IMG/VR virus record: IMGVR_UViG_3300048592_000259
Span: 1 to 62,961 of that record
Length of the DNA stretch: 62,961 nt
From: a virus
Taxonomy: Duplodnaviria > Caudoviricetes
Strand: one strand, 5' to 3'
In this document: positions 1-54,700 of the stretch, one piece after another
Position numbering within the stretch: the stretch's first letter is position 1
Layout of the letters: every line of letters begins with the position of its first letter
Notes under the pieces: model-generated
What the model was told of the DNA's origin: nothing
Seen by the model: the letters and a program-made list of their open reading frames with translations, nothing else
The model's database searches: none
Position numbers and translations under genes: made by a program

Positions 1-127
1 TCGCGGACGATCTGCGCGGCCTCGATCATCGCCGGCCGGATGTCGAGTTCGCCACCGAAGTCCACCTTCGCCCACGCGGGCGCGGCGGCGGTGAAGGCGT
101 GCAGGATGTTCTTGATGTCCGAGTCGT
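1..127. repeat. Terminal direct repeat identical to 62835-62961 (circular assembly overlap; unit genome ~62,834 bp)
   Basis: TCGCGGACGATCTGCGCGGC...GATGTCCGAGTCGT occurs identically at both ends. 127 bp matches a common assembler k-mer, and the repeat falls inside a continuous ORF. Confidence 0.95.
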
Positions 128-17401: not shown

Positions 17402-17809
17402 TTACAGCTTGAAGATCCGGTTCGGGCCGTTGTCCCAGGTGATGATGATGTCGCCGCCGTTCGGCGTGATCGGCAGGCCCGTGGCCGTGTCGATGTACGC
17501 GATGAGCGGGGACGTGCCGGCGACGCCCGTGTCCTTGTAGATCAGGATGAACTCGATCGACGTGCCGCTGACGCTCGTGAACGTCACGTCCGCGCCGTCG
17601 ACCGCGCCTCCGGTCGTGGTCTTCGAGCCCAGCGTGGCCGGCGTCGTGATGATCGCCGAGCCGGAAACGTCGCTGTAGAACTCGTGCGTGCTCGCGTTGA
17701 CCGAGTAGGCGCCCGAGTCGCCCATCGTCACCTTGATGGTGTCGGTGAGCCAGTTGAACGCGCCCTCGGCGAAACGCTGACGGCCCTTGTCGAAAAGCGT
17801 GTTGGACAT
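17402..17809 (-). CDS. Conserved virion structural protein, 135 aa
   Basis: SD AGGAG; C-terminal SPLIAYIDTATGLPITPNGGDIIITWDNG...IFKL motif common in phage virion proteins. Confidence 0.75.
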   Translation of the reverse strand: MSNTLFDKGRQRFAEGAFNWLTDTIKVTMGDSGAYSVNASTHEFYSDVSGSAIITTPATLGSKTTTGGAVDGADVTFTSVSGTSIEFILIYKDTGVAGTSPLIAYIDTATGLPITPNGGDIIITWDNGPNRIFKL

Positions 17810-19630: not shown

Positions 19631-20728
19631 CTACTGGAGGTAGTGGTCGCAGGTGACGATGCCGAAGTCCTCGGTCGAGGCATCGTAGATGCTGTAGAAC
19701 TTCGGCTTCAGCAGGCCGAACATCTTGTCGATGTTGATGCCTTGCTGCGAGTTGTACTGGAACGTCTTCTCGTCCCACTCGGGCGGGCCCAGGTCCGCCA
19801 TGCCGAGCGACTGCGCACCGCACAGGAGCGACCGCGTGCCGTTGACCGCGTTGCCGGAGCCCCACTTCGTCGCCGTGCCCTTGGTGTTGTAGACCAGGCG
19901 ATGCTCGTGGATCACCGCGCCGTCGATCGTCACCGTCGCGCCCGTGAACCACGGCGAGTCGGTGCCCTTCGCGGCGGCGACGCTCGTGACCGCGCGCTGG
20001 TAGTCCGCGTCCTTCTTCAGCGCGGCCAGCGTTTGCGGGTGCACGAACAGGATGTAGTACTCCTTGCCGCCCGACATCAGCGGCTTGACGTAGTGCTCCT
20101 TCGCGTACGCGATCAGGTCCACGATCATCGTGTACTTCGGCACGAAGCCCGTGGTGATCGTCGACGTGTCGGACGCGAGCAGCGACGTGCCGTTGAACAT
20201 CAGCGCACGCTTGCTCGACGGCGCCGACACGTCGCTGGCGAAGGCCAGGTTCGCGAAGGCGGACGAGACGCGCGCGGCGCCGTTGTTCTTGTAGGCGTAG
20301 CTGATGCCCGACATCGTGAGCAGCACCAGCTGGTCGACGCGGTTCGCGAGCCAGTAGGCCAGGCGGTCCTTGCCCGTCTCGCGGAACTTGATGACCGTCT
20401 TCTGGTCCGCGAGCTTGCCCTTGTTCTTGACGCCGTGCGAGATCAGGTCGATGTTCACGACCTGGCTGTACGACTGCATCGCTTCCTCGTTGCCTTCGCG
20501 TTCGTTGTCGCCCTGAACGCCGTCTTCCACGAGGTCCGCGACCAGGTGCATGATGACCTGTTCGCCCTTCTCGGTCTTCGTGAGTTCCGTGATCCGCTGG
20601 ATCACGTTGTTCTCGCCGGTACCGGTGAAACGCTTCGTGAACATCTGGTCGCGTGCGGCTTCCCACACGTCGCGGGACCAGACGATCTTCTGCTTGGGGG
20701 TGAGTGCTGCGAAATTCGTGGCGGCCAT
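19631..20728 (-). CDS. Major capsid protein, N4-gp56/DUF4043 family, 365 aa
   Basis: TNFAALT...WSRDVWEAARDQMF, IQRITELTKTEKG, GDNEREGNEE and DFGIVTCD motifs; SD AGGAG; follows the scaffold gene. Confidence 0.92.
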   Translation of the reverse strand: MAATNFAALTPKQKIVWSRDVWEAARDQMFTKRFTGTGENNVIQRITELTKTEKGEQVIMHLVADLVEDGVQGDNEREGNEEAMQSYSQVVNIDLISHGVKNKGKLADQKTVIKFRETGKDRLAYWLANRVDQLVLLTMSGISYAYKNNGAARVSSAFANLAFASDVSAPSSKRALMFNGTSLLASDTSTITTGFVPKYTMIVDLIAYAKEHYVKPLMSGGKEYYILFVHPQTLAALKKDADYQRAVTSVAAAKGTDSPWFTGATVTIDGAVIHEHRLVYNTKGTATKWGSGNAVNGTRSLLCGAQSLGMADLGPPEWDEKTFQYNSQQGINIDKMFGLLKPKFYSIYDASTEDFGIVTCDHYLQ

Positions 20729-20941: not shown

Positions 20942-21961
20942 CTACCCGCTGACAACATCCCCGCGCTCTTTCCGCTTGTCTTCCTCGCTCATGTTGCGGA
21001 AAGCGTTCTCGGACATGCCGGCCACGTCCACTTCGGTCGTGCGCGTGGTGCGCCCGCCGCCGGCCGTGGGGGTGCGCGGGGCCTGGGCGCCGGCAGCGAC
21101 CGCGGCCTTCTTCGCCGAGTTCGCCGTGCGCTGGGCGTTCGGATCCGGCCTGCCGTCGCCGTCGTCGTCGCCCTTGCCATTCGGCGCGTACAGCGGGCCG
21201 ACCTTCTTCGCGGCCTTGCGCAGCGCCACGTCCGGGGCCTCGCCCTTCGCCATGTAGAAATCGCGCCACTCGACGACCTCGGCGACCGCCGCCTTGTTCA
21301 GCGTCTTCGCGTTCTTGCTGTCGAGGAATGGGAACTCGGCGACGACCTCGCTGGCGGCGACGTTCAGCAACCGCGCGTTCTCCCGCGCGATGGCCCGCTG
21401 GTCCGCCGCGTCGGTGGCTCGCGCCAACGTCTCGGCCTGGATCTGGTCCATGATGGCGTCGGCGGCGTCCTCGTCGCCCTCCATCAGCTTCGTGCGGTAC
21501 TGCCGGTTGAGCTCCTTCAGGTCGACCGGCTTCGCTGCCCCGCCACCTTCGCCGCCCTCTCCCTCGCCTCCCGCGATCGCGCGCCGTTCCGCGAGGGCAC
21601 CTTCGGCGCGCAGACGTGCTTCGCGCTCGGCTTGAAGCTCGGTGTTGACCTCGTTGAAGCGCGCGCGGGGAATGGTGTCGCCGCCCTCGGCGACCGAACG
21701 TAGCGCGTCAGGGTCGAGCGCATCGCCCTGTCCACCGCCGCCATCACCATCGCCGCCAGCTGCACCGCCCTCGCCTCCGGCTCCGTCGCCGCCGGCCGCA
21801 TCGGGGTCGACCACATCGCCGCGGTCCTCGCCCTGCGTCGTATTGGAGGCGCCGCCATCATCGCCCCCACCGTCACCGCCACCGCCATCATCACCGCCGC
21901 TGACGCGCGTTTCGATCGCGCCGCCATCGTCGTCGTCCGGATCCAGCACGGGCTTGCCCAT
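20942..21961 (-). CDS. Capsid scaffolding protein, 339 aa
   Basis: Start MGKPVLDPDDDD after GGAG; acidic Gly-rich N-terminus, IPRARFNEVN motif, C-terminal MSENAFRNMSEEDKRKERGD; lies between portal and MCP. Confidence 0.8.
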   Translation of the reverse strand: MGKPVLDPDDDDGGAIETRVSGGDDGGGGDGGGDDGGASNTTQGEDRGDVVDPDAAGGDGAGGEGGAAGGDGDGGGGQGDALDPDALRSVAEGGDTIPRARFNEVNTELQAEREARLRAEGALAERRAIAGGEGEGGEGGGAAKPVDLKELNRQYRTKLMEGDEDAADAIMDQIQAETLARATDAADQRAIARENARLLNVAASEVVAEFPFLDSKNAKTLNKAAVAEVVEWRDFYMAKGEAPDVALRKAAKKVGPLYAPNGKGDDDGDGRPDPNAQRTANSAKKAAVAAGAQAPRTPTAGGGRTTRTTEVDVAGMSENAFRNMSEEDKRKERGDVVSG

Positions 21962-21999
21962 CGCATGCTCCTGTCTGAGTTTTATGAGAACTGCTGGGA

Positions 22000-22191
22000 C
22001 TACTTCGTCTTGCCAGCGCCCTGGCTCATCGCGTCGAGCGCCGCGGCCTTCTCCTTCGCCAACTTCCGCACCGCCTTCAGGCGGGCGGGGTCCTTCTGGA
22101 TCTCGTACGCGCGCGTGAGGATGCGCAGGTCGTCTTCGATTTCCCACGAGCGATCCACGCTGGGGACCGCACCGCTTGCCTTCTTCGTCAT
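22000..22191 (-). CDS. Small conserved head-module protein, 63 aa
   Basis: SD GGAGG; MTKKASGA...WEIEDDLRILTRAYEIQKDPARLKAVRKLAKEK. Confidence 0.7.
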   Translation of the reverse strand: MTKKASGAVPSVDRSWEIEDDLRILTRAYEIQKDPARLKAVRKLAKEKAAALDAMSQGAGKTK

Positions 22192-22210: not shown

Positions 22211-24358
22211 CTACGCGGGCGGCGCCGGGGGCGGCGGCGTGCCGCCACCTTCGATGCCGCTGGTGATGCCGACGTTCGCGCTCTCGGGCTTCGCCGGGAC
22301 GAGCGGGGACGTGTTCTGTTCGATGACCTGGGGCTCGGCCGGCGCCGGCAGGAGGCCCGCGGGCGCAGCCGGGATGATCGGCGCGGCGTCCTGGTCCTCG
22401 AAGCCCGCGCTCTTGAGCAGGCCATCGGCGATGCCCGACACGGCAGGCATGCTCGCGATCGTGGCGCCGGTCTGCGCCGCGGCGAACATCGACGTGACGC
22501 GCTCGTTGACCGTCTCGGCCTTGATCTTGTCCGCCGTGACCTGGGCGAGCGCGCCCTGGGCCTGCGCGAGCGCCGCCTTCGCCTGGGTGAGCGGGTCGAC
22601 CTGCGTGGGCGACGCGGCCATCTGCTCGATGATGTCCGACTTCTCCAGCAGGTTCGAGTGCCGGATCATCACGTTGTCCGGGACGCGCACGCCGACCTTG
22701 CGCATTTCGAGCGCCTGTTGGAACTGGCTGTTCTCGAACGTCACCTGCATCGGCTGTTCCGTGACCACGGTGTCGTAGTCGCCGGCCGTCAGGTCGTTCT
22801 TCCAGCGGCCTTCCTCGGGGGAGTACTCGTTCACCGTGTAGGTCTTGTCGACCTTCTTGCCGGTGCGCGGGTCGGTTTCGGTGATGCGGAACACGCGCTT
22901 GTTGTCCATGAAGCGCGTCATCAGGTAGTGGAAGAAGTCCGCGACCATGCGGCGCGTGCGCGACAGGTTGTCGAGCGGCACGGCAAGCTGCTGTTGCGAC
23001 GCGAACTGCTTCGACTGGATCGCGATGCCCGAGACTTCGCGCCCCTGGGTGCCGCGCATCGCGTCGGGGACCGTTACCTCCTTGAGCGCGTTGAAGGCGT
23101 GTTCGATGAGACGGTCCATGCCTTGCGGGGCCTGGTTCGCCATGATCTTCTCGGGCTTCTGCGCGCCCTGCTTGTAGACGATGACGATGCCGGTCTTCGA
23201 GCCCACGTCCTCCAGGTCCTCGACGGTGTGCGACACCAGCGAGTTTTCCTCGACCGTCCACCCGCTGTTCGCCGTCGTGTTGACGATGTGCACGAACTGG
23301 CTGATGGCCTTGTTCAGGACCTCCTGCGGGCTGATGGCGTTGTCGACCATGCCGCGCGTCTCGCCGCGGCGAAAGTAGCAGAAGAACGGGACGACCGTGA
23401 AGCGATCGTAGGGCGACGTTTGATCGAACAGCGTCGCCCAGCGCGACGTGATGCACCATTGGACCACGCGGCGCATGCGCACCGACGGCGTGGCGCCCTG
23501 CGTGACCCACTCCTGGATCTGGTCGGGCGTGGCGTAGTCGACGGGCTCGACCTCGCCGGTCGGGAACACGACGACCTTCGTGCGCTGGTACTTCCAGTAC
23601 TGCCGCATGATGAGGCGATAGCGGCGCGTGCCTTCCTCGTCGGTCCAGCGGTCCCAAAACTGCGTCGACGTGCGCGATCCGAACTTCGCGCGCTTGCCCT
23701 CGTCGTCATCGTCTCCGAAGTCCGCCTCGCTGTCGTAGGCGTGGGCCTCCATGAGCTTCTGGCGCGCTTCCTCGCCCAGGTATTCGGCCACCTGGTCGGC
23801 GGTGAACCACAGAGTCACCGTCACGTCGTACCAGGACGACGGGTCGTAGCCCTTCGCGTCCGGGTCCGGGATCACGTCGCGCGGGTCGAGCGTTTCGACG
23901 CTGATGTCGCCGAACACGTTCTGGTCGAAGTCCATGCGGATGTCGAAGTACCCGCGCTGTTCGATCAGCCCGTCCGCGAAGACCTGCGTTTCCTTCCAAT
24001 GGAAGTGGGTGTGGTCGCACACCTGCATCGCGATCTTCGAGCGCAGCGCCGCCTGGAGCTCGTCGCCCTCCTGGCCGCGCGGCCGGAAGGTGATGTCCAT
24101 GCGGTTGTGGATCTGGTAGCCGATCGCGCTGTTGACGCCCGGCATGACCAGGTTCAACTCGTACCAGGGGCGGTTCCCCGAGTCCTTCAGCCGTTGCTTG
24201 TCCTCGTCCGACCATTGCTTGCCGGCGCCGAGGTAGAAGTCGTTGCACCGCTGCGCGCGGCGGATGTAGTCGCGATGGCCGCGGTCGAGGCAGTACTGGT
24301 AGCGCGACCAGTTGATGTCGGCCAGCTGCGTGGCGGTGGGCTGCGTGGTCGTCGTCAT
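22211..24358 (-). CDS. Portal protein (P22-like), 715 aa
   Basis: FYLGAGKQW, ELNLVMPGVNSAIGYQ, GMVDNAISPQEVLNK and SGIAIQSKQ motifs; follows terL. Confidence 0.9.
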   Translation of the reverse strand: MTTTTQPTATQLADINWSRYQYCLDRGHRDYIRRAQRCNDFYLGAGKQWSDEDKQRLKDSGNRPWYELNLVMPGVNSAIGYQIHNRMDITFRPRGQEGDELQAALRSKIAMQVCDHTHFHWKETQVFADGLIEQRGYFDIRMDFDQNVFGDISVETLDPRDVIPDPDAKGYDPSSWYDVTVTLWFTADQVAEYLGEEARQKLMEAHAYDSEADFGDDDDEGKRAKFGSRTSTQFWDRWTDEEGTRRYRLIMRQYWKYQRTKVVVFPTGEVEPVDYATPDQIQEWVTQGATPSVRMRRVVQWCITSRWATLFDQTSPYDRFTVVPFFCYFRRGETRGMVDNAISPQEVLNKAISQFVHIVNTTANSGWTVEENSLVSHTVEDLEDVGSKTGIVIVYKQGAQKPEKIMANQAPQGMDRLIEHAFNALKEVTVPDAMRGTQGREVSGIAIQSKQFASQQQLAVPLDNLSRTRRMVADFFHYLMTRFMDNKRVFRITETDPRTGKKVDKTYTVNEYSPEEGRWKNDLTAGDYDTVVTEQPMQVTFENSQFQQALEMRKVGVRVPDNVMIRHSNLLEKSDIIEQMAASPTQVDPLTQAKAALAQAQGALAQVTADKIKAETVNERVTSMFAAAQTGATIASMPAVSGIADGLLKSAGFEDQDAAPIIPAAPAGLLPAPAEPQVIEQNTSPLVPAKPESANVGITSGIEGGGTPPPPAPPA

Positions 24359-24468
24359 CGCTCACTCCGCGCGGGGTCGCGCTTCGATGTCGCCGCCAGC
24401 GAATAGGAAGGCGCCAGGTCTGAGCCCGGCTGCTGGACGGCGAGGGTACGCGGAATCGGCATGGGCAT
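24355..24468 (-). CDS. Possible 37-aa coupling mini-ORF between terL and portal
   Basis: ATG overlaps the terL stop (TGATG) and its TGA overlaps the portal ATG (ATGA). Confidence 0.4.
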   Translation of the reverse strand: MPMPIPRTLAVQQPGSDLAPSYSLAATSKRDPARSER

Positions 24469-25988
24469 CAAGCCGACTGGTGGGATTCGTCTTCGCCACG
24501 GGCCTTGGCGCGCATCTTGGCGAGCTTCATCATGGTCGTCTCCTGGACCGTCTTGCGGGGCTCGACCGACGACGCGAAGGTGATCGCCAGGGAGTCGCCG
24601 CTGTCCGGCGATGCCAAGCCCCGCTCCTTCATGTCCTCCTTGCGCTCCAGCTGCATCTTCTCCGTCGTGGCGAAGCCGTACTCGGGGCCGGTGAGATCCG
24701 CCGCGATTTCCTCGTCCACCTGGCCGTCGATCGTCGCCGGCAGCGTGCCGCCCTCGCGAAGCCACTCGCGCATGCGGTACCAGAGTTCCATCCGGCGGTT
24801 GAAGAAGCGCCGCGGGTCGATCGCCGCCTCGCCCACCTGGACCGCGTACAGCCGATCCTTGATCTTCGGCCGGCGCCGCAGGTTGTCGTAGACGCCCCAG
24901 CCCATGCCGGTCACGTCGATAAACACGCCGTCGGGGTCGAACGCCGCGATTTCCTCGGCCGCCACGTCGGCGAGCAGCATCAAGTCCTGGATGCGGTGGC
25001 GCTTGAACGGCCAGGTCTTCAACTGCTGGCGGAAGCAGAAGACGGACTGGTCGTCGCCGTGCCGCGCCACGTCGATGCCCATGACCTTCGCGTACGTCTC
25101 GAAGCCGCGCGCGGTGCGCTGCTGGGCCTGGGTGACTTCCTCGAAGCTGATGAACTGGAGCGTCGAGGCCCGCGGGAACACGCCGCGCACGCGCACGCGG
25201 AAGAAGTCGCTGTCCTCGCCGTAGTCGTCCTTCCATTGCTGGATCTTGCGCTGGTCGGCCTTCCGGGCGTTGCGCGCGTCGACCTGGTAGTGGTGCCACC
25301 GATGCTTGAACTTCCCGAAGCAGGCGTGAAAGCGCCCGCTGTTCTTCGTCGGGTTGCCGAACACGAACCACATGGCGCCGGCGGTGGTCATCGCGCCCTC
25401 GGTGACCTCCCAAATCTTGTCGTCGATCAGCGATGCCTCGTCGAACAGCACCAGGACGAACTTCTCGTGCGTGCCGGCGAACGCTTCCGAGGCGTGGGCC
25501 GACCAGGGGATCGCCGACGCGAACCACGTCTCGGGGTAGATGACGTGCTTGAACGACGTGGCGGTCCAGTCGAACAGGTCGCGCACCATCGACATGCGGT
25601 GCCACTTCGCGAGCTCGCGCCAGGTCTTCGTGAGCAGCTGGGTCCGCGTGTTCGCGGTGACGACGACCTGCGGATGCTCGCGCGTCGACGTGAACCACTC
25701 GATGATCCAGGCGACGAACGCGGTCTTGCCGACGCCGTGGCCGGACGACACGGCGAACTGGAGCGCCTCGGGCAGCGTCGAGACGACGCCTTCCTCCAGC
25801 GCGGTCTTCAGGTCGCTCAGTAGCTCGGCCTGCCACTTGTCCGGGCCGGGGTCGTCGCGTAGCGGGCCGGTCCCCCACGGGTAGGCCCACATGACGAAGC
25901 CCATCGGGTCGTAGGCGAACCGGCCGGCATCGTCCGCCAGGGCGTGCGCCTGGGCCGCGGTCAGCGGGGTGCGCCCGCCGAGGCTCAT
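24468..25988 (-). CDS. terL: Terminase large subunit, 506 aa
   Basis: Walker A SGHGVGKT, Walker B LFDEAS, coupling motif GNPT, nuclease motifs GIDVARHGDD and SPDSGDSLA. Confidence 0.95.
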   Translation of the reverse strand: MSLGGRTPLTAAQAHALADDAGRFAYDPMGFVMWAYPWGTGPLRDDPGPDKWQAELLSDLKTALEEGVVSTLPEALQFAVSSGHGVGKTAFVAWIIEWFTSTREHPQVVVTANTRTQLLTKTWRELAKWHRMSMVRDLFDWTATSFKHVIYPETWFASAIPWSAHASEAFAGTHEKFVLVLFDEASLIDDKIWEVTEGAMTTAGAMWFVFGNPTKNSGRFHACFGKFKHRWHHYQVDARNARKADQRKIQQWKDDYGEDSDFFRVRVRGVFPRASTLQFISFEEVTQAQQRTARGFETYAKVMGIDVARHGDDQSVFCFRQQLKTWPFKRHRIQDLMLLADVAAEEIAAFDPDGVFIDVTGMGWGVYDNLRRRPKIKDRLYAVQVGEAAIDPRRFFNRRMELWYRMREWLREGGTLPATIDGQVDEEIAADLTGPEYGFATTEKMQLERKEDMKERGLASPDSGDSLAITFASSVEPRKTVQETTMMKLAKMRAKARGEDESHQSA

Positions 25989-26668
25989 GGGTCGATCCGC
26001 TCGGCGGTGCCGGCGTAGGTCTTCCCGTGGCGATCGCGGATGGCCTTCTCGGCGCGCTCGCGCGACTGGCGCAGGCGTTCGTCGAAGTCCCCGGCGCCCC
26101 CGACCTCGACCTTCGCGACCAGGCTCCCCTCGTTCGTCGCGAGCAGCTTCAAGGCGTCGAGCTTCGAGTGCATCCTGACCTTGTGGGTGTGCCCGATCAC
26201 CCGCGTCTCGCCGGTCGACGGATCCGTGGCCTTCAATTCGGCCCGCTCGAAGGACGCGACCATCGCCGAGACGTGCCGCGGCAGGTCCTTGAACGCCTTC
26301 AGGTCCCCGTTCTCGTCGAGCAGGTCGGCGACGTTCCCGAAGGCGACCAGGGCAATCTCGTCCAGGGTCTTCTCGGCCGACCGCTTGTACCGGGAGCGTA
26401 GTGCGCGCTCACCACGGGCAATTTCCGAGGAAATCCGAGGGTCTTTCGTCAGGCGCGGCCCCTCGGTGTCGGCGGTCGCCAGGGACGCCTCGGGGTACGC
26501 CTCGCGGTAGGCGCGCGTGGCGTTGAAGTGGACCAGGTAGCGGGAGACGAACAGCCGTTGCTGGATCGTCAGCGGGGCGGCGAGGGCCCGGCCCTTCGCG
26601 ACCTTGGGCTTCGCGGGGCGACCACGACGCTTGGTCGGGTCAGAGCCCTTGGGCTTGGCGCTCGGCAC
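25985..26668 (-). CDS. terS: Terminase small subunit, 227 aa
   Basis: LTIQQRLFVSRYLVHFNATRAYREAY HTH motif and KLDALKLL; immediately upstream of terL. Confidence 0.88.
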   Translation of the reverse strand: MPSAKPKGSDPTKRRGRPAKPKVAKGRALAAPLTIQQRLFVSRYLVHFNATRAYREAYPEASLATADTEGPRLTKDPRISSEIARGERALRSRYKRSAEKTLDEIALVAFGNVADLLDENGDLKAFKDLPRHVSAMVASFERAELKATDPSTGETRVIGHTHKVRMHSKLDALKLLATNEGSLVAKVEVGGAGDFDERLRQSRERAEKAIRDRHGKTYAGTAERIDP

Positions 26669-27122
26669 GGGTCTGGAAGGTGCGCACCACGTCGTTCACG
26701 GCCTTGGTCAGGGCGTGCACGATTTCAAGCTCGCGGAACCGCTCGGTCGGGCCGGGGCGCTTCATCGGGACCAGCGAGTAGACCGGCGGGACGTGCCGCG
26801 GGATCTTGACCGCCCGGGCGATCACCACGATGCCGTCGTCGGTCCGGTAGTGCGTCAGGGCCGGGTCGTCCAGGGCCGGCGCCGCGCGCCGGATGACGCT
26901 CGCGCACGCCTCCAGGAAGGGCTCGGCGATCGCGTTGAAGCCCTGATGGTCCCGCGTCTGGTTGATGGCGCCCACGCCGAACATCAGGTCGTTGGTCCGG
27001 AACCGCTGGGCCGGCGACGCGCAGGTCGGTGAAGCGGCCACGCCGACCGCGTACCAGGCGGCGCATTCGATGAAGGCGCCCCGGAGGCGGAATCGGGCGA
27101 AGGCTCCCGCGTCGAGCGTCAC
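26640..27122 (-). CDS. Hypothetical protein, 160 aa
   Basis: GTG start with GTGA overlap to the upstream gene; high GC3. Confidence 0.55.
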   Translation of the reverse strand: MTLDAGAFARFRLRGAFIECAAWYAVGVAASPTCASPAQRFRTNDLMFGVGAINQTRDHQGFNAIAEPFLEACASVIRRAAPALDDPALTHYRTDDGIVVIARAVKIPRHVPPVYSLVPMKRPGPTERFRELEIVHALTKAVNDVVRTFQTRAERQAQGL

Positions 27123-27514
27123 CGCTGCCCCTTCGGGGGCACCCAACGGCAGTCGGGCAGCGACAGTTCGCACGACGAGCAGCGGATGAGCCCGGACCGG
27201 TGGAGGCGGAAGTCCTTGCCGTTGCAGCGCGGGCACCCGGCGATGTCGACCTCGATCATGCCGGGGCCGACGACCTTGGCGTTGCGCATCTCGCGCTGCC
27301 GCACCTGGGCCTGGGCCGAGACGTGCGCCACCGCGGTCCGCAGCTGCCGCATGCTGAACGGGCGCACGTTGTCGATCGGGGCGGTGGGCTTCGCGGCGCC
27401 CATCGGCTCCGGGACCCCATCCGAATGGGGTTGGAATGCCTCTGGAATGGGATTCGGAAGGGATACGGCGGACGGCGGCGCGTCGCTGGTGCGGTCGCCG
27501 GGCTGGTCGGTCAT
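27119..27514 (-). CDS. Zinc-ribbon protein, 131 aa
   Basis: MTDQPGD start; C-terminal CPRC...CSSC; first gene after the promoter at 27621-27649. Confidence 0.6.
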   Translation of the reverse strand: MTDQPGDRTSDAPPSAVSLPNPIPEAFQPHSDGVPEPMGAAKPTAPIDNVRPFSMRQLRTAVAHVSAQAQVRQREMRNAKVVGPGMIEVDIAGCPRCNGKDFRLHRSGLIRCSSCELSLPDCRWVPPKGQR

Positions 27515-27620
27515 GGATGGGCCCCCTGTGGGGCTCGCGCCCCTCGTCGAGCATCCTGGGGAGGACCGCAGCCGGGGGGATGGCCGGAGCGTTGCGCGAC
27601 GAGGGGGTTCGCCAGCCGCG

Positions 27621-27649
27621 ATGCTAACCGGCGCCCACGCGCGCCGCAA
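27621..27649 (-). promoter_or_regulatory. Putative sigma70-type promoter for the packaging operon, followed by a structured 5' UTR
   Basis: TTGCGG-17-TAGCAT on the minus strand; downstream 10-bp stem CCCCTCGTCG (27540-27549) / CGACGAGGGG (27597-27606). Confidence 0.45.
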
Positions 27650-27671
27650 TGGCTGTCGGCTGACGCCGCAC

Positions 27672-27926
27672 CTATTCGTCGGACGGGATGCCGGCGATGT
27701 CGGCGAACGTGGCGAGCGCCAGCTGGTCGATGCGGTTCCCCAGCCACGCCGCGAGTTCCGCCCGAGCCTTCGCGCGGATTTCGAGATAGCTCGCGCCGAC
27801 CAGCGGCCAGGTCACGTCGGCCGCGACGACGACCTCGGGCACCAGCGGCGCTGGCAGCGGGATCTTCGCGAGCGCGGGCGCGGCGAAGACGGCGGCGAGG
27901 CTCCCGAGGAGCCCGCGGCGGTTCAT
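27672..27926 (-). CDS. 84-aa protein: Tat-like signal plus a segment resembling the major capsid protein
   Basis: MNRRGLLGSLAAVFAAPALA N-terminus; LAAWLGNRIDQLALAT versus MCP LAYWLANRVDQLVLLT; ATGA overlap with the upstream gene. Confidence 0.65.
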   Translation of the reverse strand: MNRRGLLGSLAAVFAAPALAKIPLPAPLVPEVVVAADVTWPLVGASYLEIRAKARAELAAWLGNRIDQLALATFADIAGIPSDE

Positions 27927-28171
27927 GGCGCGAGCCCGCACACGCGGGCGTATCGGCGCAGCAGGGAGCGCGAGCGCGGGACGCGCATGAACGTCATCAC
28001 GATCCGGTTGATGCCGTAGTCGCAGGCGGCGCACACGCCCAGGAAGCGCCGGCCGTTCGCGCAGACCTGCCACTGGTGGACCGACGGGGCGCCGCATCGG
28101 CAGCACGGCACGCGCGAGATCCCGCGCGTCGTGTACGGCTTCACCCGGCCGGCGTAGCGGACCCTCCCCAT
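27923..28171 (-). CDS. Zinc-finger protein, 82 aa, probably leaderless
   Basis: CCRCG...CAAC; TACAAT at 28184-28179 lies 7 nt before the ATG. Confidence 0.6.
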   Translation of the reverse strand: MGRVRYAGRVKPYTTRGISRVPCCRCGAPSVHQWQVCANGRRFLGVCAACDYGINRIVMTFMRVPRSRSLLRRYARVCGLAP

Positions 28172-28227
28172 GCTCGGAATTGTATGCCAATTGGGGTGCA
28201 ATTGACCCCCAAGCGGGGGCTCGCGCG

Positions 28228-28274
28228 AGGGTCTATCCAGACCCTATCCAGACCCTATTTAGACCCTAAATAGG
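28228..28274. repeat. 11-bp tandem repeats (CTATCCAGACC x2, CTATTTAGACC, partial fourth) with AGGGTCT/AGACCCT inverted repeat
   Basis: Directly visible in the AT-richer divergent intergenic region. Confidence 0.8.
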
Positions 28275-28302
28275 CACCAACCGGTGAGTCCCGCGCCCGT
28301 GA

Positions 28303-28318
28303 TGTTCCACATGAAACA
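28303..28318. promoter_or_regulatory. parS-like site TGTTCCACATGAAACA
   Basis: 15/16 match to chromosomal parS TGTTCCACGTGAAACA; the palindrome extends to GA...TC flanks. Confidence 0.6.
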
Positions 28319-28363
28319 TCGCGCCGCGGCCGGTGTTGCACGCGCGCAACTGGCCGACGAACG

Positions 28364-28405
28364 GTATCAACCTAGATTGATACTGCGCAGGATATGCGCT
28401 ACGAT
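28364..28405 (+). promoter_or_regulatory. Early promoter TTGATA-17-TACGAT overlapped by palindromic operator GTATCAA-N6-TTGATAC
   Basis: -35 at 28377-28382, -10 at 28400-28405; perfect 7-bp inverted repeat at 28364-28383. Confidence 0.7.
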
Positions 28406-35688: not shown

Positions 35689-36072
35689 CTACGACGGGTT
35701 GCGCACCTTGGCGGCCATGATGAGGGCGAGGTAAGCGACGAGAACGAAGTCGATCACCAGCCCCATGAACGCCTGCATCGGACCCTGGAACACGTAGGCG
35801 GTCGTCGCCAGCGCGAGGAAGTTGCACAGCGCCAGCCCGATGCCGAAAGCGCGCCACCGTGTTCCGTGCGAGTACGCGCCGATCGTACACGTCGCGAAGC
35901 CCATCAGCAACGCGCCGACCATGATTTGCTCGAACCCCAGGCTGTAGACCGCGCTCATCACGTTGCCGCGCACGCGCGGGAAGAAGAAGCCCGAACACCA
36001 TGTCAGCTGCCGGATGCCGGCGAGCAGCAGGACGAAGTTGAACAGGCCGAGGGCGAGGGGGTTGAGGATCAT
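35689..36072 (-). CDS. Multi-pass membrane protein, 127 aa
   Basis: About four hydrophobic segments; within the lysis region. Confidence 0.65.
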   Translation of the reverse strand: MILNPLALGLFNFVLLLAGIRQLTWCSGFFFPRVRGNVMSAVYSLGFEQIMVGALLMGFATCTIGAYSHGTRWRAFGIGLALCNFLALATTAYVFQGPMQAFMGLVIDFVLVAYLALIMAAKVRNPS

Positions 36073-36088
36073 GGTCGGCGTCGACGGG

Positions 36089-36709
36089 TCAGCGGTTGCG
36101 TCCGCGGTTCTTCTTCCCGGCGCCCGGGAAGCCCGGCTGGTCCAGGTCGCGCTCGCTCGGGTGCTTCCAGGTTTCCTCGACGTAGGCTTGCGGCAGGCCG
36201 CCGTTCGCCCACTTGCCGAGCGCGTTCACCTTCGGCGCGCCGGCCGCGATCCACGCCGCGTAGTTGTCGCTGGCCGACAGCTGGTTGTTGTAGGCGTAGG
36301 ACGCGCCGAGCGGATTCCAGCCGATCGTGCCCGGGCTCGTCATCACTTCGTTCCACGGCAGGCCCTCGACATCGGGGCCGACGACGGCGAGCTCGCGCGG
36401 CTTCGTCCCGCCGAGCATGCCGAGGATGATGTTCGCCTGGTTGTAGTCGGCGACGCTCGCGCCGACCATCGCGCCCAGCAGGCCCTTCATCCAGAAGTCG
36501 CGCGCGAAGTACTTGCCATCGCCCGACAGGTACGGCGCCAGCACGTCGCCCAGGAGGCGCGCGCGCTGGTCCGCGGGCAACGACTGGTCGCTGAAGCGCG
36601 GGTCCTGCGGCAGCAGGGTGGGAACCGTCGGCGCCGGCGCGGGGCCTTGCATCGCGCGCAGGGACGCCAGCAGGGCCTCGGTCGAGGCGATCGCTTGTGC
36701 CAGATCCAT
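36089..36709 (-). CDS. Hypothetical protein, 206 aa
   Basis: SD AGGAG before MDLAQAIAST; high GC3. Confidence 0.7.
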   Translation of the reverse strand: MDLAQAIASTEALLASLRAMQGPAPAPTVPTLLPQDPRFSDQSLPADQRARLLGDVLAPYLSGDGKYFARDFWMKGLLGAMVGASVADYNQANIILGMLGGTKPRELAVVGPDVEGLPWNEVMTSPGTIGWNPLGASYAYNNQLSASDNYAAWIAAGAPKVNALGKWANGGLPQAYVEETWKHPSERDLDQPGFPGAGKKNRGRNR

Positions 36710-36738
36710 GATGCTCTCCTGTCCTTGTTGTGGGTGGG

Positions 36739-37956
36739 CTACTGCTTCGCGGGCGGATCCGTCGCGCGTTGGGCCGGACGCTGTTGCAGGCTCAACCCGT
36801 AGAAGAAGCCCGTGATCGACCCCAGCACGCCGGAAATGACCGCCGTGATGACGACGTTCTGCATGTCGGCCGAGAAGCTGAACGACGCGGCGACCAGGCC
36901 GATGGTTTCGAGCGTCACGCGCTCCGCGCCGAGCGCCGCCACCAGCGTCAGGAAGAAGGTCGAGAAGCCGCGCCCGGCCAGCACGATCGTCACCACGAAG
37001 ATGACCATGAGCAGCAGCGGAATCGTGACGAGCAGGGCCGGGTTGCGCAGCACGGAGCCGGGCGCGTTCTGCACGTCCGTCGACCACTTCCGCGCCTCGG
37101 CGATGCCCCCGCCGACTTCGGTGAGCGTCGCGACGTACTGCACGATCGCGTTGTCGGCGGCCTGGGCCACGGTCTTGTCATCGGCGACCTTCTCGACCGC
37201 CTCTTGCAGGTTGATCGCGCCGACCGTCTTCGTCAGCACGTCGGCGAGGATCGGCGCGGCTTCCTCGATCTTGCGGCCCTTCACGCCGCCATCGCTGATG
37301 ATCTTCGCGATGCTCGGAAGGTACTGCGCTGCGATCGACAGCAGGGGGAGGACGATCGGGGCCATTTTGGGTGCGTCCTGTTCGGGGTTGAAGATCCTGC
37401 CGTCGTCGGTCGACGCCGGCTCGTAGATCGTGCCGCGGTCCTCGATCGGCGCGGGCGCCTGCTCGGCGGCCGTCGCGAGGGTGCCGCCGTAGCGGATGAA
37501 GACCTGCCGCGCGGCGGACATCGTGTACCGCGGGTTGTTCTCGTTCGCGCCCGGCAGGCTCGTCCACTCCTGTTCGAGCTTCGCGACCGCATCCTCGAAG
37601 CGGCCGGCGATCACGTCGCCGAGGGCACCGCGGTCCGCCAGGCCCACCACGAAGGCGAAGTCCTGCTCGGGCGGCGTGAAGCCGCGCAGGTCGTCCGGGT
37701 AGCGCTTCCGGATGCCGGCCCAGGTCGTGCCAAGGTGCTGGTACGCGCCGCTCGCGCGCGCGCCGTTCGTCGTCGTGATGCCGTCGTAGGGGTGCTTCGA
37801 CAGGTCGGTGAGATCCGGCCGGCCGTTGACGCGGTAGTACGCGCGGTCGGTCTGGTCCGTCTCGCCTTCGCGCACGACGCGGCCCATCGCCTTGACGTTC
37901 GCGTTCGCCATCGCGGCGCGCACGTCGGCGGACGTGAAGTAGCGCGGATCTACCAC
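36739..37956 (-). CDS. Endolysin (lambda R/GH104-type lytic transglycosylase) fused to a C-terminal holin-like membrane domain, ~405 aa
   Basis: VREGET, ASGAYQHLGTTW, FTPPEQD and EWTSLPG motifs; C-terminal TM segments ending GFFYGLS; exact start uncertain. Confidence 0.8.
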   Translation of the reverse strand: MVDPRYFTSADVRAAMANANVKAMGRVVREGETDQTDRAYYRVNGRPDLTDLSKHPYDGITTTNGARASGAYQHLGTTWAGIRKRYPDDLRGFTPPEQDFAFVVGLADRGALGDVIAGRFEDAVAKLEQEWTSLPGANENNPRYTMSAARQVFIRYGGTLATAAEQAPAPIEDRGTIYEPASTDDGRIFNPEQDAPKMAPIVLPLLSIAAQYLPSIAKIISDGGVKGRKIEEAAPILADVLTKTVGAINLQEAVEKVADDKTVAQAADNAIVQYVATLTEVGGGIAEARKWSTDVQNAPGSVLRNPALLVTIPLLLMVIFVVTIVLAGRGFSTFFLTLVAALGAERVTLETIGLVAASFSFSADMQNVVITAVISGVLGSITGFFYGLSLQQRPAQRATDPPAKQ

Positions 37957-37996
37957 GTCGATCCCCGGAGGGGTCCCGCCAGCATGGACAGGAGGA

Positions 37997-38368
37997 TCAT
38001 GCGGTGCGCGCCGCCGGCCGGAAATCGTCGCTGTGATAGCGCACGAGCATGGCAATCCGCACGCGCGCGAACATCGTGGCGACCAGGTGCCCGAACATCA
38101 CGCACACCAGCGCGACGATGTTCGAGTACTCCGACCAGATGACGACCCCGGAAATGACGCACCAGAACAGCCCCACGCGGATCGCCGCGAGCGTGAGGAC
38201 CTGCGCCTGCACCCGCTGCGAGTCCTCGCACAATCCGAAGATCGCGCACATGACACGCAGGCGGCTGAACTCCATGAAGTAGAGGTTCACCATCGTCCAC
38301 AGGGAAATGAGGACGACGGCGGAAGCGGCGAGAGCGACGATCGTGTTCAAGAACGCGGCGCTAATCAT
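37997..38368 (-). CDS. Membrane protein (holin/antiholin candidate), 123 aa
   Basis: Three hydrophobic segments; directly upstream of the endolysin gene. Confidence 0.6.
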   Translation of the reverse strand: MISAAFLNTIVALAASAVVLISLWTMVNLYFMEFSRLRVMCAIFGLCEDSQRVQAQVLTLAAIRVGLFWCVISGVVIWSEYSNIVALVCVMFGHLVATMFARVRIAMLVRYHSDDFRPAARTA

Positions 38369-38708
38369 CGGATTTGCCCCCTTTCGAGAGAACGGCCCGA
38401 ATGATGCGAACCAGGAAACCGGCCGGGTCTGACCGCAGCGCCTCGAAGATGGAGCGCCCCGCGAGAAGGATGTCCTCTGCGATGAATGCCGACCCCGCGA
38501 TGATCGCGATGCGAAGGCTCGGCGACGCGGCGATTTCCTGGAGCCCGTAGTACAGCACGATGGCGATGGTCCCGGCGGCCGACAGGCTCCGGAGAAGCCC
38601 CGGGCATCCGCCGTGCCGGTCGATCAACAGCCATCGCGACAACGCCCCCATGAAGACAGCACCCGCGATAATCAGCAGGGAGGCCCATTCCAGGAAAAAC
38701 GACTGCAT
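38361..38708 (-). CDS. Holin candidate, ~115 aa
   Basis: Three TM segments and a charged C-terminus; first gene of the lysis cassette; alternative start 38732. Confidence 0.6.
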   Translation of the reverse strand: MQSFFLEWASLLIIAGAVFMGALSRWLLIDRHGGCPGLLRSLSAAGTIAIVLYYGLQEIAASPSLRIAIIAGSAFIAEDILLAGRSIFEALRSDPAGFLVRIIRAVLSKGGKSDD

Positions 38709-38791
38709 CCCTACGGCCCCTTGCGCCAGCACGCGCTATTGGCGCCGGCCTCTGCGGGACCGTGCGACCGGGGAACGCTTCCGCGCGGAGA

Positions 38792-51745: not shown

Positions 51746-54700
51746 CTACTGCGCCAGGCGTTCGCGCAGGTCGTTGCGCATGCCGGCGGGCGCCGCCTTC
51801 ACGAAGCGTTCGCTGCGCGTGGTCTGCATTTCCTTCACGCGGCGCGCGATGTCGCTCGGGCGAATCTGGATCTTCGCTTCGGGGTTCTTCTCGTTCCAGT
51901 CGCGCAGCTGCGCGAGCGCGTCGTTCACCTTCGCCTTGTCCTTCTCGAAGATGCCGGTCGCCCAGCGGTCGGCCACTTCGCCCTGCACCGCGCGCACCAG
52001 GTTCGCGGTCTGCTGGCCTTCGCTGATGATGCGCGACTCGGCGGCCACCTTCGACGGGTTGAACCCCGTGGCGCGGGCGATCGCGTCGGTCGTGTCGGTC
52101 GCGATGACGCGCCGGCCGCGGCTGTCGAGCGCGTAGCCGCCCTGGATCATGTCGACGGCCTTCGCCGCGTCCTGGAGCGCCTTCGGCGCGAACTGGCGCG
52201 CCGCGGCGCCGAACTCGCCCGACTGCGCGCTCGTGACGGCATCCGCGACGCTGCGCGCGAGCCCGCCGGCCGGCCCCAGCACGTCCACGATGTCGCGGCC
52301 CTTGTCGACGTTCGACTTCTTCGCGAGGCCCGTGCCGGGGATCAGGTTGCCCATCCCCATGCGGCCCTGCACGTCGAGCGGGAAGCCGGGCATCGTCGAC
52401 GCGCCGTGCAGCACGAACGCGCCCAGGTCCTTCCCGAGGGTCGAGACGATGAACGCGCGCTTCTGCTCCTTCGTGTTCCAGTTGTACCCGAGGGACTGCG
52501 CGATCGTGTCGATCAGGTCGTCCAGGTCGTCCGAGAACGGGAGCCCGGAGATCCCGGACGCCAGCATCAGCAGGCCCAGCGCGTACGCGCGCTCGCGCGG
52601 GGGCAGGCGCTTCAGGAACTCCAGGTAGGCGATCGAGTACTGCTTGAACGTCATCACCGTCGCGCCGATCGGGCCGCGCGCCCAATTCGGCCGGTTCGCC
52701 TTGTTGTAGACGCCCTGCGTCTCCGCGATCGCGTTGACCGCGAAGTCGTAGGCGCTCTTGGCGCCGGCGTCGGCAAGCTGCTCGGCGTTCCAGTCCTTCG
52801 CCATCCCGAAGGCGGCGAGGAAGGTGGACCGGCGGTTGAACTGCTCGGCGACGGCGAACATCGACCCCCACACCTTGAGGCCCTTCCGGAGGTAGATGTT
52901 CGACCCGAGCCCGCGGATCGACTCGGCGTACAGCTGGTGGATTTCGTGCGGCGAGACGGTGCCCTCGCGCTCGGCGCGCGCGAGCGCCGCGGCCGTGGCG
53001 GGATCCGTCGGCCGCGTCACCGCCTCCTTCATGCCTCGCGCGAGCGCGCCCGCGGCCTTGGTCGCGCCGAACTGCGACAGGTAGGGCAGCGTCATCATGA
53101 ACGGCTGGGTCGTGTTCACGACCGCCGACGCGACCGACCCGCCGAGGTACTGGACGAACAGGAAGCCGCGCAGCGACGCCGCTTCCTCCTTCGGGTCCTG
53201 GAGGTAGGTGACGAGCTTGACCGCCTCGTCCTTCACGTCGCCCATGCGCTTCGGGATCGCCTCGACCGCATCGTTCATGTCGGCGTTGTTGAGGTTCCCC
53301 GACGCCGCGCGCGCGTTGCTCGTGATGAAGGCCGACAGCACGCGCTGGGCGTCCTGGTCGAAGCCGGCGATGCCCTGGCGTTGCAGCAGGCGCTTGAGCG
53401 CGCTGCGGTTGTTCAGGGCCATGCGGATGAACTCGTGGAACGCCTCGCGCTGGTCGGCGCCGGTCGCCTTCGCGAACAACTCCAGCGTGTCCGGCGTCAT
53501 CCCGCGGAACATCTTGTGGGCTTCCTTCGACAGCGTGCCCTGGGTGACTTGGGCGTTCGGGAACTCGGCGCGCAGCGACCGCGCCATTGCGTTCGCGTCC
53601 GCCTGGCGCTCGAACATGCCGAAGTAGACGCGGTTGTCGCCCTGCACCGCGTCGACGGTGTACTGGCCGAAGCGCATCAGCGGCGCGTAGCCCTCGCGGA
53701 TCAACTCGCGCACGCGGCCGTACCGGTTCAGGATCTCGCCGGCCGTCGCGGAAAGCTCCGCGCGCGCCGCCTCGGTCGTCGCGGCCTGCGACAGGCGGAT
53801 CAACTCGCCAGAGAGGGCCTGGGACGCGCCGTGGTGCGTCAGGAGCATGGCCTGGTCGATGAACGCCTTGTCGACCTTCCCGCGCGCCAGGCGAGCCATT
53901 TCCGACTGCGAGAGCGTTTCCAGCGACCGTTCGATCGCCGCGCGCGACTCCTGGTAGAGGCCGACCTGGCGCGGCGTCAGGTGGAAGCGATCGCGCAACT
54001 CGGCTTCGGTGTACTCGCGCTCGTCGATCAGCGTGCCGTGGAACAGCGGCACCGACACGGCGCGCACGTCCTTCGACGACGGGCCGATCTTGAGGACGCC
54101 CGAGAGCCCTTCGAGCTTCGGCAGGAGGTCCTTCGCCCGGTCGGCCGCGTCGTTCGCGATGCGCGACACGTCGTTGACGTACCGCTGCGCCTGGTCGTAG
54201 ACCCGCTTGAACTCGGGCACGACGGTCGCCTTGTGGAACTGCGTGCCGACGGTCTTGTGCCAGGGGTTGAAGACGCGCTGGGTCGTCAGGTGGTCCTGGA
54301 TGCGATCGGTGATCCTCGACACGGTGCCGCGGGACACCCCGAACGGCAGGCCGGGCTCGGCGACGATCCATTGCGGGTCAGCCTCGCCGACTTCCGGCTG
54401 GGCGGCATCGCCGGCCGTGTAGCGGCGCAGCGGTTCGGCCGCGACCGGCTTGGCCTCGTCGTCCGCTTCCTCCCCGCCCTCGGGCGCCGCGGCGGCGCCG
54501 TTGTCCTCCACCCCGATCCCGAGGGCCTTGTCGAGTTCGCGCTGGCGCTCCAGTAGCTCCTGGACCTTCGCGGCCTGCGGGTAGGGCTTCTCCGACTCGG
54601 CGCGCGCGACGGCCGCGTTGGCCGCGTTCTTCTCGGCCACGGCCGTCATCCGGGCCGCTTCCTCCGTCACGTCGCGCACCAGCCCTTCGAGGCGCTGGAT

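Follow-up and report, generated by a model that had tools for sequence, protein, structure and literature searches.

For bacteria, capsid proteins rank among the principal cues that a phage has infected the cell, and Lit reads the Gol peptide of T4 gp23. In the part of the CapRelSJ46 report that deals with its trigger, the sensor acts in the cytoplasm and is triggered by the SECPhi27 capsid protein Gp57 (PMC9712102). In the AlphaFold model presented there, CapRelSJ46 contacts the beta-sheet and the spine helix of the P-domain of the HK97-fold capsid protein, and escape mutations fall in this contacted capsid surface (PMC9712102). Virus-encoded fragments have also been considered as decoys: in Bodo saltans virus, ankyrin-repeat proteins carry fragments of essential viral genes, and the section of Deeg et al. 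2018 on these proteins proposes that they are host-defence decoys (PMC5871332).

Here, we describe a small phage gene, which we call the mini-gene, that invites comparison with both. It is like the CapRelSJ46 and Lit cases in that it carries a short conserved capsid stretch of the kind that the host sensor reads there, but the triggers in those cases are stretches of the full capsid protein in the cytoplasm, whereas the mini-gene is a separate gene with an export-type leader. It is like the Bodo saltans virus proteins, as they are portrayed in that section, in that pieces of the virus's own essential proteins are placed on a constant module in a multi-copy accessory family; it differs in that Bodo saltans virus is a eukaryotic giant virus, with an ankyrin-repeat module, catalytic-domain fragments and a decoy role that is a proposal (PMC5871332). 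By analogy, the CapRelSJ46 system would be a precedent for a sensor that reads the copied capsid surface, so that the function suggested from the sequence alone (decoy, assembly modulator or exclusion factor) stays plausible.

The window, that is, the whole stretch of 62,961 bases that was analysed, is a complete virus record with direct terminal repeats and a GC content of 69%. According to PHROG scans that covered 47 ORFs, the head and packaging genes form a leftward unit of terS (25985-26668), terL (24468-25988), portal (22211-24358), a scaffold-like ORF (20942-22147) and the major capsid protein (MCP; 19631-20728, minus strand, 365 residues), after which come connector and tail genes. A divergent intergenic region (28202..28393) separates this unit, which also includes a Cys-rich ORF and the mini-gene, from a rightward block that begins at ~28394, with replication and recombination genes farther along. 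By gene layout, the transcription unit headed by the mini-gene continues into terS, terL, portal, scaffold and MCP. A promoter scan reported a single sigma-70-like site, on the plus strand at 28377-28405, in or near the divergent region; scans around the mini-gene found neither a minus-strand promoter-like site nor a terminator-like site, and Rfam and tRNA scans of the window gave no matches. The nearest named phage among 50,697 records is Acidovorax phage AP1, with a match confined to the MCP gene (79.5% DNA identity), and near-identical DNA is present in wastewater runs of several studies.

The mini-gene (27672..27926, minus strand) consists of 84 codons plus a stop, and its GC content at codon positions 1/2/3 (0.75/0.51/0.93) fits the coding signature of this GC-rich genome. 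The start codon, an ATG at 27926, shares bases with the stop codon (TGA) of the 92-residue ORF upstream (27923-28201), giving ATGA. An alternative reading of 172 residues from a TTG at 28190 was rejected, since the GC pattern of the added part (0.93/0.60/0.61) indicates that it is not coding in the mini-gene frame. We conclude that the mini-gene is a real accessory gene for an 84-residue protein in which a Tat-type leader is joined by a flexible linker to a single long helix. The sequence-only reading, in which a Tat-like leader precedes a copied MCP helix in a mini-gene, is thus borne out by the coding signature, the ATGA start and the significant match to the MCP described below.

Variants of the locus were found on contigs from three wastewater runs in two studies, which cover 27106-28125 or more and carry 10-29 differences. 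The 255 bases of the mini-gene differ at two places only: a synonymous change at 27858 (codon 23), and a change at 27911 that converts codon 6 from CTC to TTC (L6F) and yields the family-typical RRGFL. The region 27106-28125, which contains the mini-gene, differs by ~1%, the adjoining 26942-27106 is swapped for diverged sequence of equal length, and 25-26 of the 343 bases in 26600-26942 differ; there looks to be a mosaic boundary in these alignments just downstream of the mini-gene unit. The only RNA-labelled run (X7) gave no contig over the mini-gene; the data are contigs, and the other runs are probably DNA.

The leader (residues 1-20, MNRRGLLGSLAAVFAAPALA; 27867..27926, minus strand) has a twin arginine followed, by eye, by a weakly hydrophobic stretch of 16 Ala/Gly/Leu residues and then ALA ahead of K21. 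A Tat motif has the form S/T-R-R-x-F-L-K, with a weakly hydrophobic stretch and an A-x-A site that has a basic residue nearby; in the mini-gene we find N-R-R-G-L-L, GLLGSLAAVFAAPALA with a mean Kyte-Doolittle value of 1.86, and ALA before K21. The mini-gene family is like the Tat signals of PF10518 in its RR followed by F/L-L, its Ala/Gly-rich weakly hydrophobic stretch, its basic residue near the A-x-A site and its position at the extreme N-terminus, but unlike them its leader is only ~20-22 residues long, scores below the model threshold and is conserved past the likely cleavage site. The mini-gene protein had no match to the Pfam TAT_signal model (PF10518) at E values up to 1, and NCBIfam gave no Tat model match for five family members, the mini-gene protein included, among eight proteins scanned. 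TAT_signal did match 8 of 9 relatives (E 0.003-0.33), with at most 17.8 bits, below the gathering cut-off; the curated score of 22.7 bits was reached neither by the mini-gene protein nor by its relatives. Thus, the twin-arginine-like N-terminus that had been claimed holds as a motif seen by eye, but the Pfam and NCBIfam Tat models do not recognise it. Because the RR motif is joined to a weakly hydrophobic stretch, Tat targeting is predicted, with the C-terminus outside the cytoplasm, and we infer that the leader may direct Tat export of the mini-gene peptide.

The constraint on the family leader acts on the peptide. An HMM built from 116 leader sequences matched the mini-gene in the window with an E value of 2e-10 and matched nothing else there; the mini-gene leader reads as a divergent copy, with L at residue 6 and without S-L-M after the A-x-A site. 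In family members from loci L003-L166, leader residues 23-30 are (D/E/S)-S-L-M followed by a Pro- or Val-rich stretch. We analysed codon use in 65 family members; as these were picked for RR and A-P-A at fixed places, those columns cannot vary. Per-site differences were 0.40/0.28/0.64 at codon positions 1/2/3; R3, R4, A16, P17 and A18 are each encoded by 4-5 synonymous codons, and both TCN and AGY codons are used for Ser24. This synonymous diversity, together with the pattern across codon positions, argues for constraint on the peptide rather than on a DNA element. Met26, four residues past the likely cleavage site, is kept in 63 of the 65 members, and leader conservation spans ~30 residues, extending past the likely signal-peptidase site. 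Since this exceeds what a signal peptide needs, the leader may have a second reader other than Tat; bacterial Tat signals are far less conserved than the phage-family leader is across unrelated phages.

The remainder of the protein is simple. An AlphaFold2 model (pLDDT 73.8) has a helix at residues 3-20, an unstructured segment at 21-40 and a helix at 41-78, and thus consists of two helices and a linker only. The Pro/Val-rich linker (residues 21-40; 27807..27866, minus strand) has no secondary structure in the model (pLDDT 51-63) and varies in length and sequence across 13 aligned homologues. The long helix (residues 41-78; 27693..27806, minus strand) is modelled with block-mean pLDDT values of 89, 93 and 84 over residues 51-80, and most of it, residues 46-78 (27693-27791, minus strand), is the part that copies the MCP.

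The identity of the MCP is well established by its matches to Pfam PF13252 (Phage_capsid_3; E 9.7e-38), to phrog_334 (E 3.4e-84) and to PDB sequences (26de_S, E 1e-134; 8h89_A, E 4.6e-32; also 9vye and 7eel). Its AlphaFold2 model, although of low confidence (pLDDT 57.8), matches HK97-fold capsids, with Foldseek placing it on the capsid of Ralstonia phage GP4 (8h89; E 1.5e-10, TM 0.52). The model contains a helix at residues 11-28, strands at 49-62 and 87-92 that form an E-loop hairpin, and then a helix at 120-140; since HK97-type capsid proteins run from N-arm through E-loop to spine helix, we infer from the model that helix 120-140 is the spine helix. The copied stretch, MCP residues 111-143 (20300..20398, minus strand, from tblastn coordinates and the model), comprises this helix and the residues before it, in agreement with the earlier assignment of the copied region to the long spine helix of HK97-fold capsids. 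In 29 MCPs, R116, L123, W126 and D132 are invariant.

The similarity between the mini-gene and the MCP is significant by several measures. The ungapped identity of 13/28 to the phage's own MCP, noted from the sequence alone, was reproduced, and BLASTP lengthened it to 13/33, also ungapped (mini-gene residues 46-78 to MCP residues 111-143; pairwise E 4e-7). The similarity withstood shuffled controls: the Smith-Waterman score of the two proteins is 69, but shuffled sequences had a mean of 26 (sd 4), none of 5000 reached 69, and a Gumbel fit of the shuffle scores gave p ~1e-6. When the mini-gene was compared with 496 six-frame ORFs from the genome, the MCP scored highest after the mini-gene itself (69 versus 47 for the next), and the six-frame search of the whole genome gave E 3.9e-4. 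Similarly, when 15 structural and packaging proteins were compared with the six-frame window, the only cross-match at E ≤0.05 was that of the MCP to the mini-gene. A tblastn search of the mini-gene against the 50,697 phage records (2.3 billion bases) returned two matches, both MCPs, at weak E values of 1 and 6.

The similarity extends to DNA, in that 19-mers are shared between ~27720 and ~20327, as had been reported, where none is expected by chance. We read the shared 19-mer as identical residues (N-R-I/V-D-Q-L) that are probably encoded by the same preferred codons. Over the aligned 99 bases, 60 are identical: 21 of 33 first, 19 of 33 second and 20 of 33 third codon positions. Because identity is even across codon positions, with no third-position excess, and the two copies lie on the same strand, we rejected a recent DNA copy, a template of the DGR type and an antisense role.

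Homologues of the mini-gene retain the same architecture. Searched exhaustively with phmmer, 1.84 billion representatives yielded 13 matches, eight of which (P0002-P0007, P0009 and P0013) were dropped as spurious, being long, multi-stretch and low in complexity, as judged on P0005. The small homologues P0008, P0010, P0011 and P0012 start with MNRRGF and end in the same helix, and a profile search added others, so that 13 proteins could be aligned: that of the window and 12 small homologues, all 12 of which retain both leader and helix. In this alignment, L58, W61 and D67 are invariant and R51 is present in 12 of 13, and these four residues align with the MCP invariants R116, L123, W126 and D132. 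Indeed, a profile comparison of the 13 mini-gene proteins with the 29 MCPs by hhalign gave a probability of 87.4% and an E value of 3.7e-6 over 31 columns (mini-gene residues 48-78 to MCP residues 113-143), so that the alignment also held at the HMM level. P0008, P0012 and P0015 match phrog_334 with E values from 1.6e-5 (P0008) to 1.2e-3, P0008 and P0012 at profile positions 110-143 and P0015 at 84-136; P0008 also matches PF13252 at positions 106-137 (E 0.0068). A match of homologue P0016 to the portal family phrog_156 was set aside, as it does not map to the portal of the window phage. A shared-word homologue search with the mini-gene protein found only the protein itself, a weak test for longer proteins (276-2000 residues) with the family found none, and an ESM Atlas search gave leads that were all under 0.9.

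These alignments show that selection retains capsid-like features in the mini-gene helix. We conclude that in this helix the phage carries a copy of the spine helix from its own HK97-fold capsid protein, a copy that has diverged but is maintained by selection. The copy is like the spine helices of PF13252 and phrog_334 (26de/44ny, 8h89) in its ~31-33 ungapped residues and in keeping the invariant R, L, W and D, but unlike HK97 MCPs it is one helix, without N-arm, E-loop, P-domain sheet or A-domain, and hence cannot form a shell. The mini-gene protein is not a full HK97 fold, as it matches positions 106-139 of the 376 in the PF13252 profile (E 0.19).

The mini-gene had been treated as a one-off gene, but this did not hold: it is one member of a family of at least 399 small proteins of 44-163 residues (E ≤0.01, profile search, 8000 scored candidates). 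Members share MNRRGFLGSILALGAAPAIVRA and then (D/S)SLM, and beyond this their C-termini are completely different. The mini-gene protein matches MNRRGFLGSILALGAAPAIVRA at its N-terminus, is small (84 residues) and has a virion-like C-terminus. IMG/VR scans gave 5 loci, and then 80 loci kept from 141 confirmed stretches, from which 71 unique members of at least 70 residues formed the test set for copies from the same phage. With the leader removed and mini-genes masked, each was compared by tblastn to its own locus (≤10 kb on each side, E ≤0.01). Matches were obtained for 13/71 real sequences, compared to 1/71 shuffled and 1/71 reversed sequences, leaving 58/71 without a match. The 13 matches fall in 11 ORFs, of which 8 are MCPs that account for 10 mini-genes; these MCPs belong to four families (phrog_283, three; phrog_212, three; phrog_334, one; phrog_9953, one). 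The remaining targets are one phrog_644 ORF, of unannotated function, and two ORFs of no family. The phrog_644 case is a leader gene, L094:3157-3450, that is 52% identical over 29 residues to L094:12154-12555 (E 4.8e-5); the window also has a phrog_644 gene (17402-17809), and as this lies among the genes of the virion module, phrog_644 proteins are probably part of the virion.

An unselected PHROG scan of the same 71 members at E ≤0.001 matched five, all to virion proteins (three MCPs, one head-tail adaptor and one scaffold), and 66 had no match. In a PHROG scan of 29 members, a set biased upward because it was picked partly by existing capsid Pfam labels, 14 matched at E ≤0.01, and the named matches were all to head-and-packaging families, including portal and scaffold. 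A capsid or virion origin of the C-termini is thus established by sequence matches for a minority of the family; for the rest, short flanks and diverged pieces limit what could be detected. The family is large and phage-specific, with the same leader and variable C-termini, a detectable share of which are pieces of the phage's own virion proteins. A literature search at abstract level found no description of such phage genes. One 322,570-base IMG/VR contig, a jumbo phage that includes loci L106 and L110, carries at least three leader genes, one of which (L110:9320-9715) matches the MCP family phrog_3231 at profile positions 660-707 (E 8.4e-9).

The distribution of the family is sporadic and accessory, with no fixed partner gene. 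In 80 IMG/VR contigs with MCPs 68-82% identical to that of the window, some of which stop short upstream of terS, no leader ORF was found; the only other match of the leader HMM on these contigs had an E value of 0.94, and homologues of the two ORFs downstream of the mini-gene were likewise found in 0/80. As to similar MCP-fragment genes elsewhere, 12 small homologues have both leader and helix, and none was found on the 80 close-MCP contigs. The window has a single leader gene, and eight family loci have two; no neighbour family occurs in more than 8 of 72 loci. The leader patterns occurred in 599 stretches from 185,579 species genomes, but a single one was confirmed; it lies on a 5.7-kb contig from a metagenome-assembled genome. 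We conclude that this is a phage family, with few or no members among the prophages of those genomes.

We also compared the mini-gene with MCPs other than its own. Its scores are 60-75 with the 29 MCPs of its clade (69 with its own), and 37 with the distant phrog_334 MCP of locus L146, which is 23% identical to that of the window; conversely, the two mini-gene proteins of L146 reach 79 and 151 with their own MCP and 19-33 with the window MCP clade. By these scores, each mini-gene matches its own capsid type but, within the clade, not its own phage in particular. Specificity for the phage's own MCP within the clade was rejected, as identity is 39% to the own MCP and 36-48% to sister MCPs among the matches listed. 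The two L146 genes (L146:7624-7893 and L146:10004-10255) both copy the first ~50 residues of their MCP, with 58% and 62% identity (E 1e-17 and 5e-8). These two copy the MCP N-terminus, so within one capsid family different surfaces are copied in different phages.

We propose, with a probability of about one in three (0.35), that the mini-gene peptide is a Tat-routed capsid mimic that occupies a capsid-recognising partner, as a decoy or sequestering device. The leader would send the peptide to the host Tat machinery, where it would be exported or held at the inner membrane; the helix would mimic newly made capsid protein and occupy a partner that normally recognises the conserved capsid surface. 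Because the capsid residues are preserved, the helix is predicted to be read by whatever reads the capsid protein. The most likely partner would be a host factor that senses capsid protein, with the peptide as decoy or sequestering device; a decoy for a capsid sensor is a leading guess only. The near-unchanged state of the mini-gene in the variants, in which L6F shifts the leader toward the family consensus, speaks for mimicry, as does the sporadic accessory distribution, which is usual for counter-defence genes. Against it, a working export signal would remove the peptide from the cytoplasm, where CapRelSJ46 acts; no Tat model matches at threshold; most family members have no detectable virion piece; and the mini-gene is no closer to its own MCP than to sister MCPs. 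Moreover, the counterparts of L58 and W61 probably pack against the P-domain sheet in the capsid protein, so that their conservation could mean MCP binding or plain helix stability, not mimicry.

Binding to the MCP is the basis of an alternative that we consider unlikely, in which a membrane-tethered helix binds unassembled MCP or scaffold and slows or misdirects head assembly, timing the phage's own assembly or poisoning co-infecting relatives. The conserved mini-gene residues are those that the MCP family never changes, the near-equal match to all 29 clade MCPs is what a weapon against relatives would show, the mini-gene stands at the head of the unit that encodes terS, terL, portal, scaffold and MCP, and truncated capsid proteins are dominant-negative inhibitors in retroelements (Ty1 p22, Fv1). 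However, such a peptide would poison the phage's own capsid too, 80 phages of the same capsid type build heads without the mini-gene, and by the positive-inside rule the positive charges before the hydrophobic stretch would give an N-in, C-out topology with the helix outside the cytoplasm. In another alternative, the protein would be a small periplasmic or membrane protein that acts in the envelope without mimicry, for instance in superinfection exclusion or lysis timing, its helix having been recruited from handy phage DNA. The Tat-like leader with a single amphipathic helix, the lack of virion-protein similarity in most family members, and the position upstream of terS, where some phages keep lysis genes, are all in its favour. 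We nevertheless find such an envelope role improbable, since a lysin-like gene and three multi-spanning membrane ORFs lie elsewhere (35.7-38.7 kb), 8-10 kb from the mini-gene, which is therefore not in the lysis-cassette position of a holin or spanin; chance recruitment leaves unexplained both the retention of MCP-invariant residues and the own-locus matches (13 versus 1 per control, 10 of the 13 on MCPs).

Two further explanations have still less to recommend them. The conserved leader and hypervariable mature part of a small protein, and the failure to find a conserved neighbour gene in 72 loci, would fit a secreted, arbitrium-like signalling peptide whose variable mature part reports the phage type to neighbouring cells. 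We regard this as very unlikely, as the 72 loci have no linked receptor gene, the capsid-derived sequence is not explained, and the family is nearly absent from bacterial genomes and hence from prophages (1 locus in 185,579 species genomes); known arbitrium systems serve temperate phages. A functionless recombination remnant or chance likeness could account for the absence of the mini-gene from 80 relatives, but is already disfavoured and scarcely credible: the gene has a coding signature, 12 homologues retain leader and helix, no shuffle of 5000 reaches the MCP score, the profile-profile E value is 3.7e-6, the leader is under protein-level constraint, and the gene variants amount to one synonymous and one conservative change, compared to 25-26 of 343 bases at 26600-26942.

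The proposal of a Tat-routed mimic can be extended to the whole family, in a form that we hold to be doubtful. Many unrelated tailed phages might use a portable, near-invariant Tat-type leader to send copies of virion surfaces to the membrane or periplasm, capturing immune sensors of newly made capsid, portal or scaffold protein; the mini-gene, with a single leader and a single spine helix, would then be the simplest example. Captured sensors could be held at the Tat translocon or carried out with the peptide as passengers, much as partner proteins hitch-hike through Tat; this would resolve the conflict over topology, but is pure speculation. Phages with a widespread gene family in which one constant export-type leader bears copies of short, conserved capsid surfaces would have a new kind of accessory system. 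If the peptides do act as decoys or in sequestration, each of them would pinpoint exactly which capsid surface some host factor reads, and the sequence catalogue would become a map of immune targets. The mini-gene is a good test object, being a minimal leader, linker and helix with four conserved residues that are directly mutable. If the family acts otherwise, it is still large, conserved and unannotated, with members that current pipelines call hypothetical.

Several other genes of the window merit description. The Cys-rich ORF upstream of the mini-gene (27923..28201, minus strand, 92 residues, GC3 0.91) has the pattern CCRC...C...C..C and, given the ATGA overlap, is probably translationally coupled to the mini-gene; searches of Pfam, PHROGs and NCBIfam assigned it to no family, and none of the 80 close-MCP contigs gave a homologue. 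Downstream, a 176-residue ORF (27119-27649, minus strand) has a strong coding signal confined to its last ~230 bases, which encode CPRC...CSSC, similar to a zinc ribbon; the ~310 bases between this coding part and the stop codon of the mini-gene have no clear coding frame. A 438-residue lysin or metallo-endopeptidase-like ORF (36739-38055, minus strand) adjoins ORFs with several hydrophobic segments, of which there are three (35689-36072, 37997-38368 and 38361-38732, minus strand), and judging from these features the region 35689-38732 (minus strand) is likely a lysis cluster. At the ends of the window, a 797-residue ORF (3-2396, minus strand) matches related large-protein PHROGs, and a DarB-like ORF of 3,717 residues (51746-62899, minus strand) matches antirestriction, DNA methyltransferase and helicase PHROGs, with phrog_10089 as the top match (1793.6 bits).
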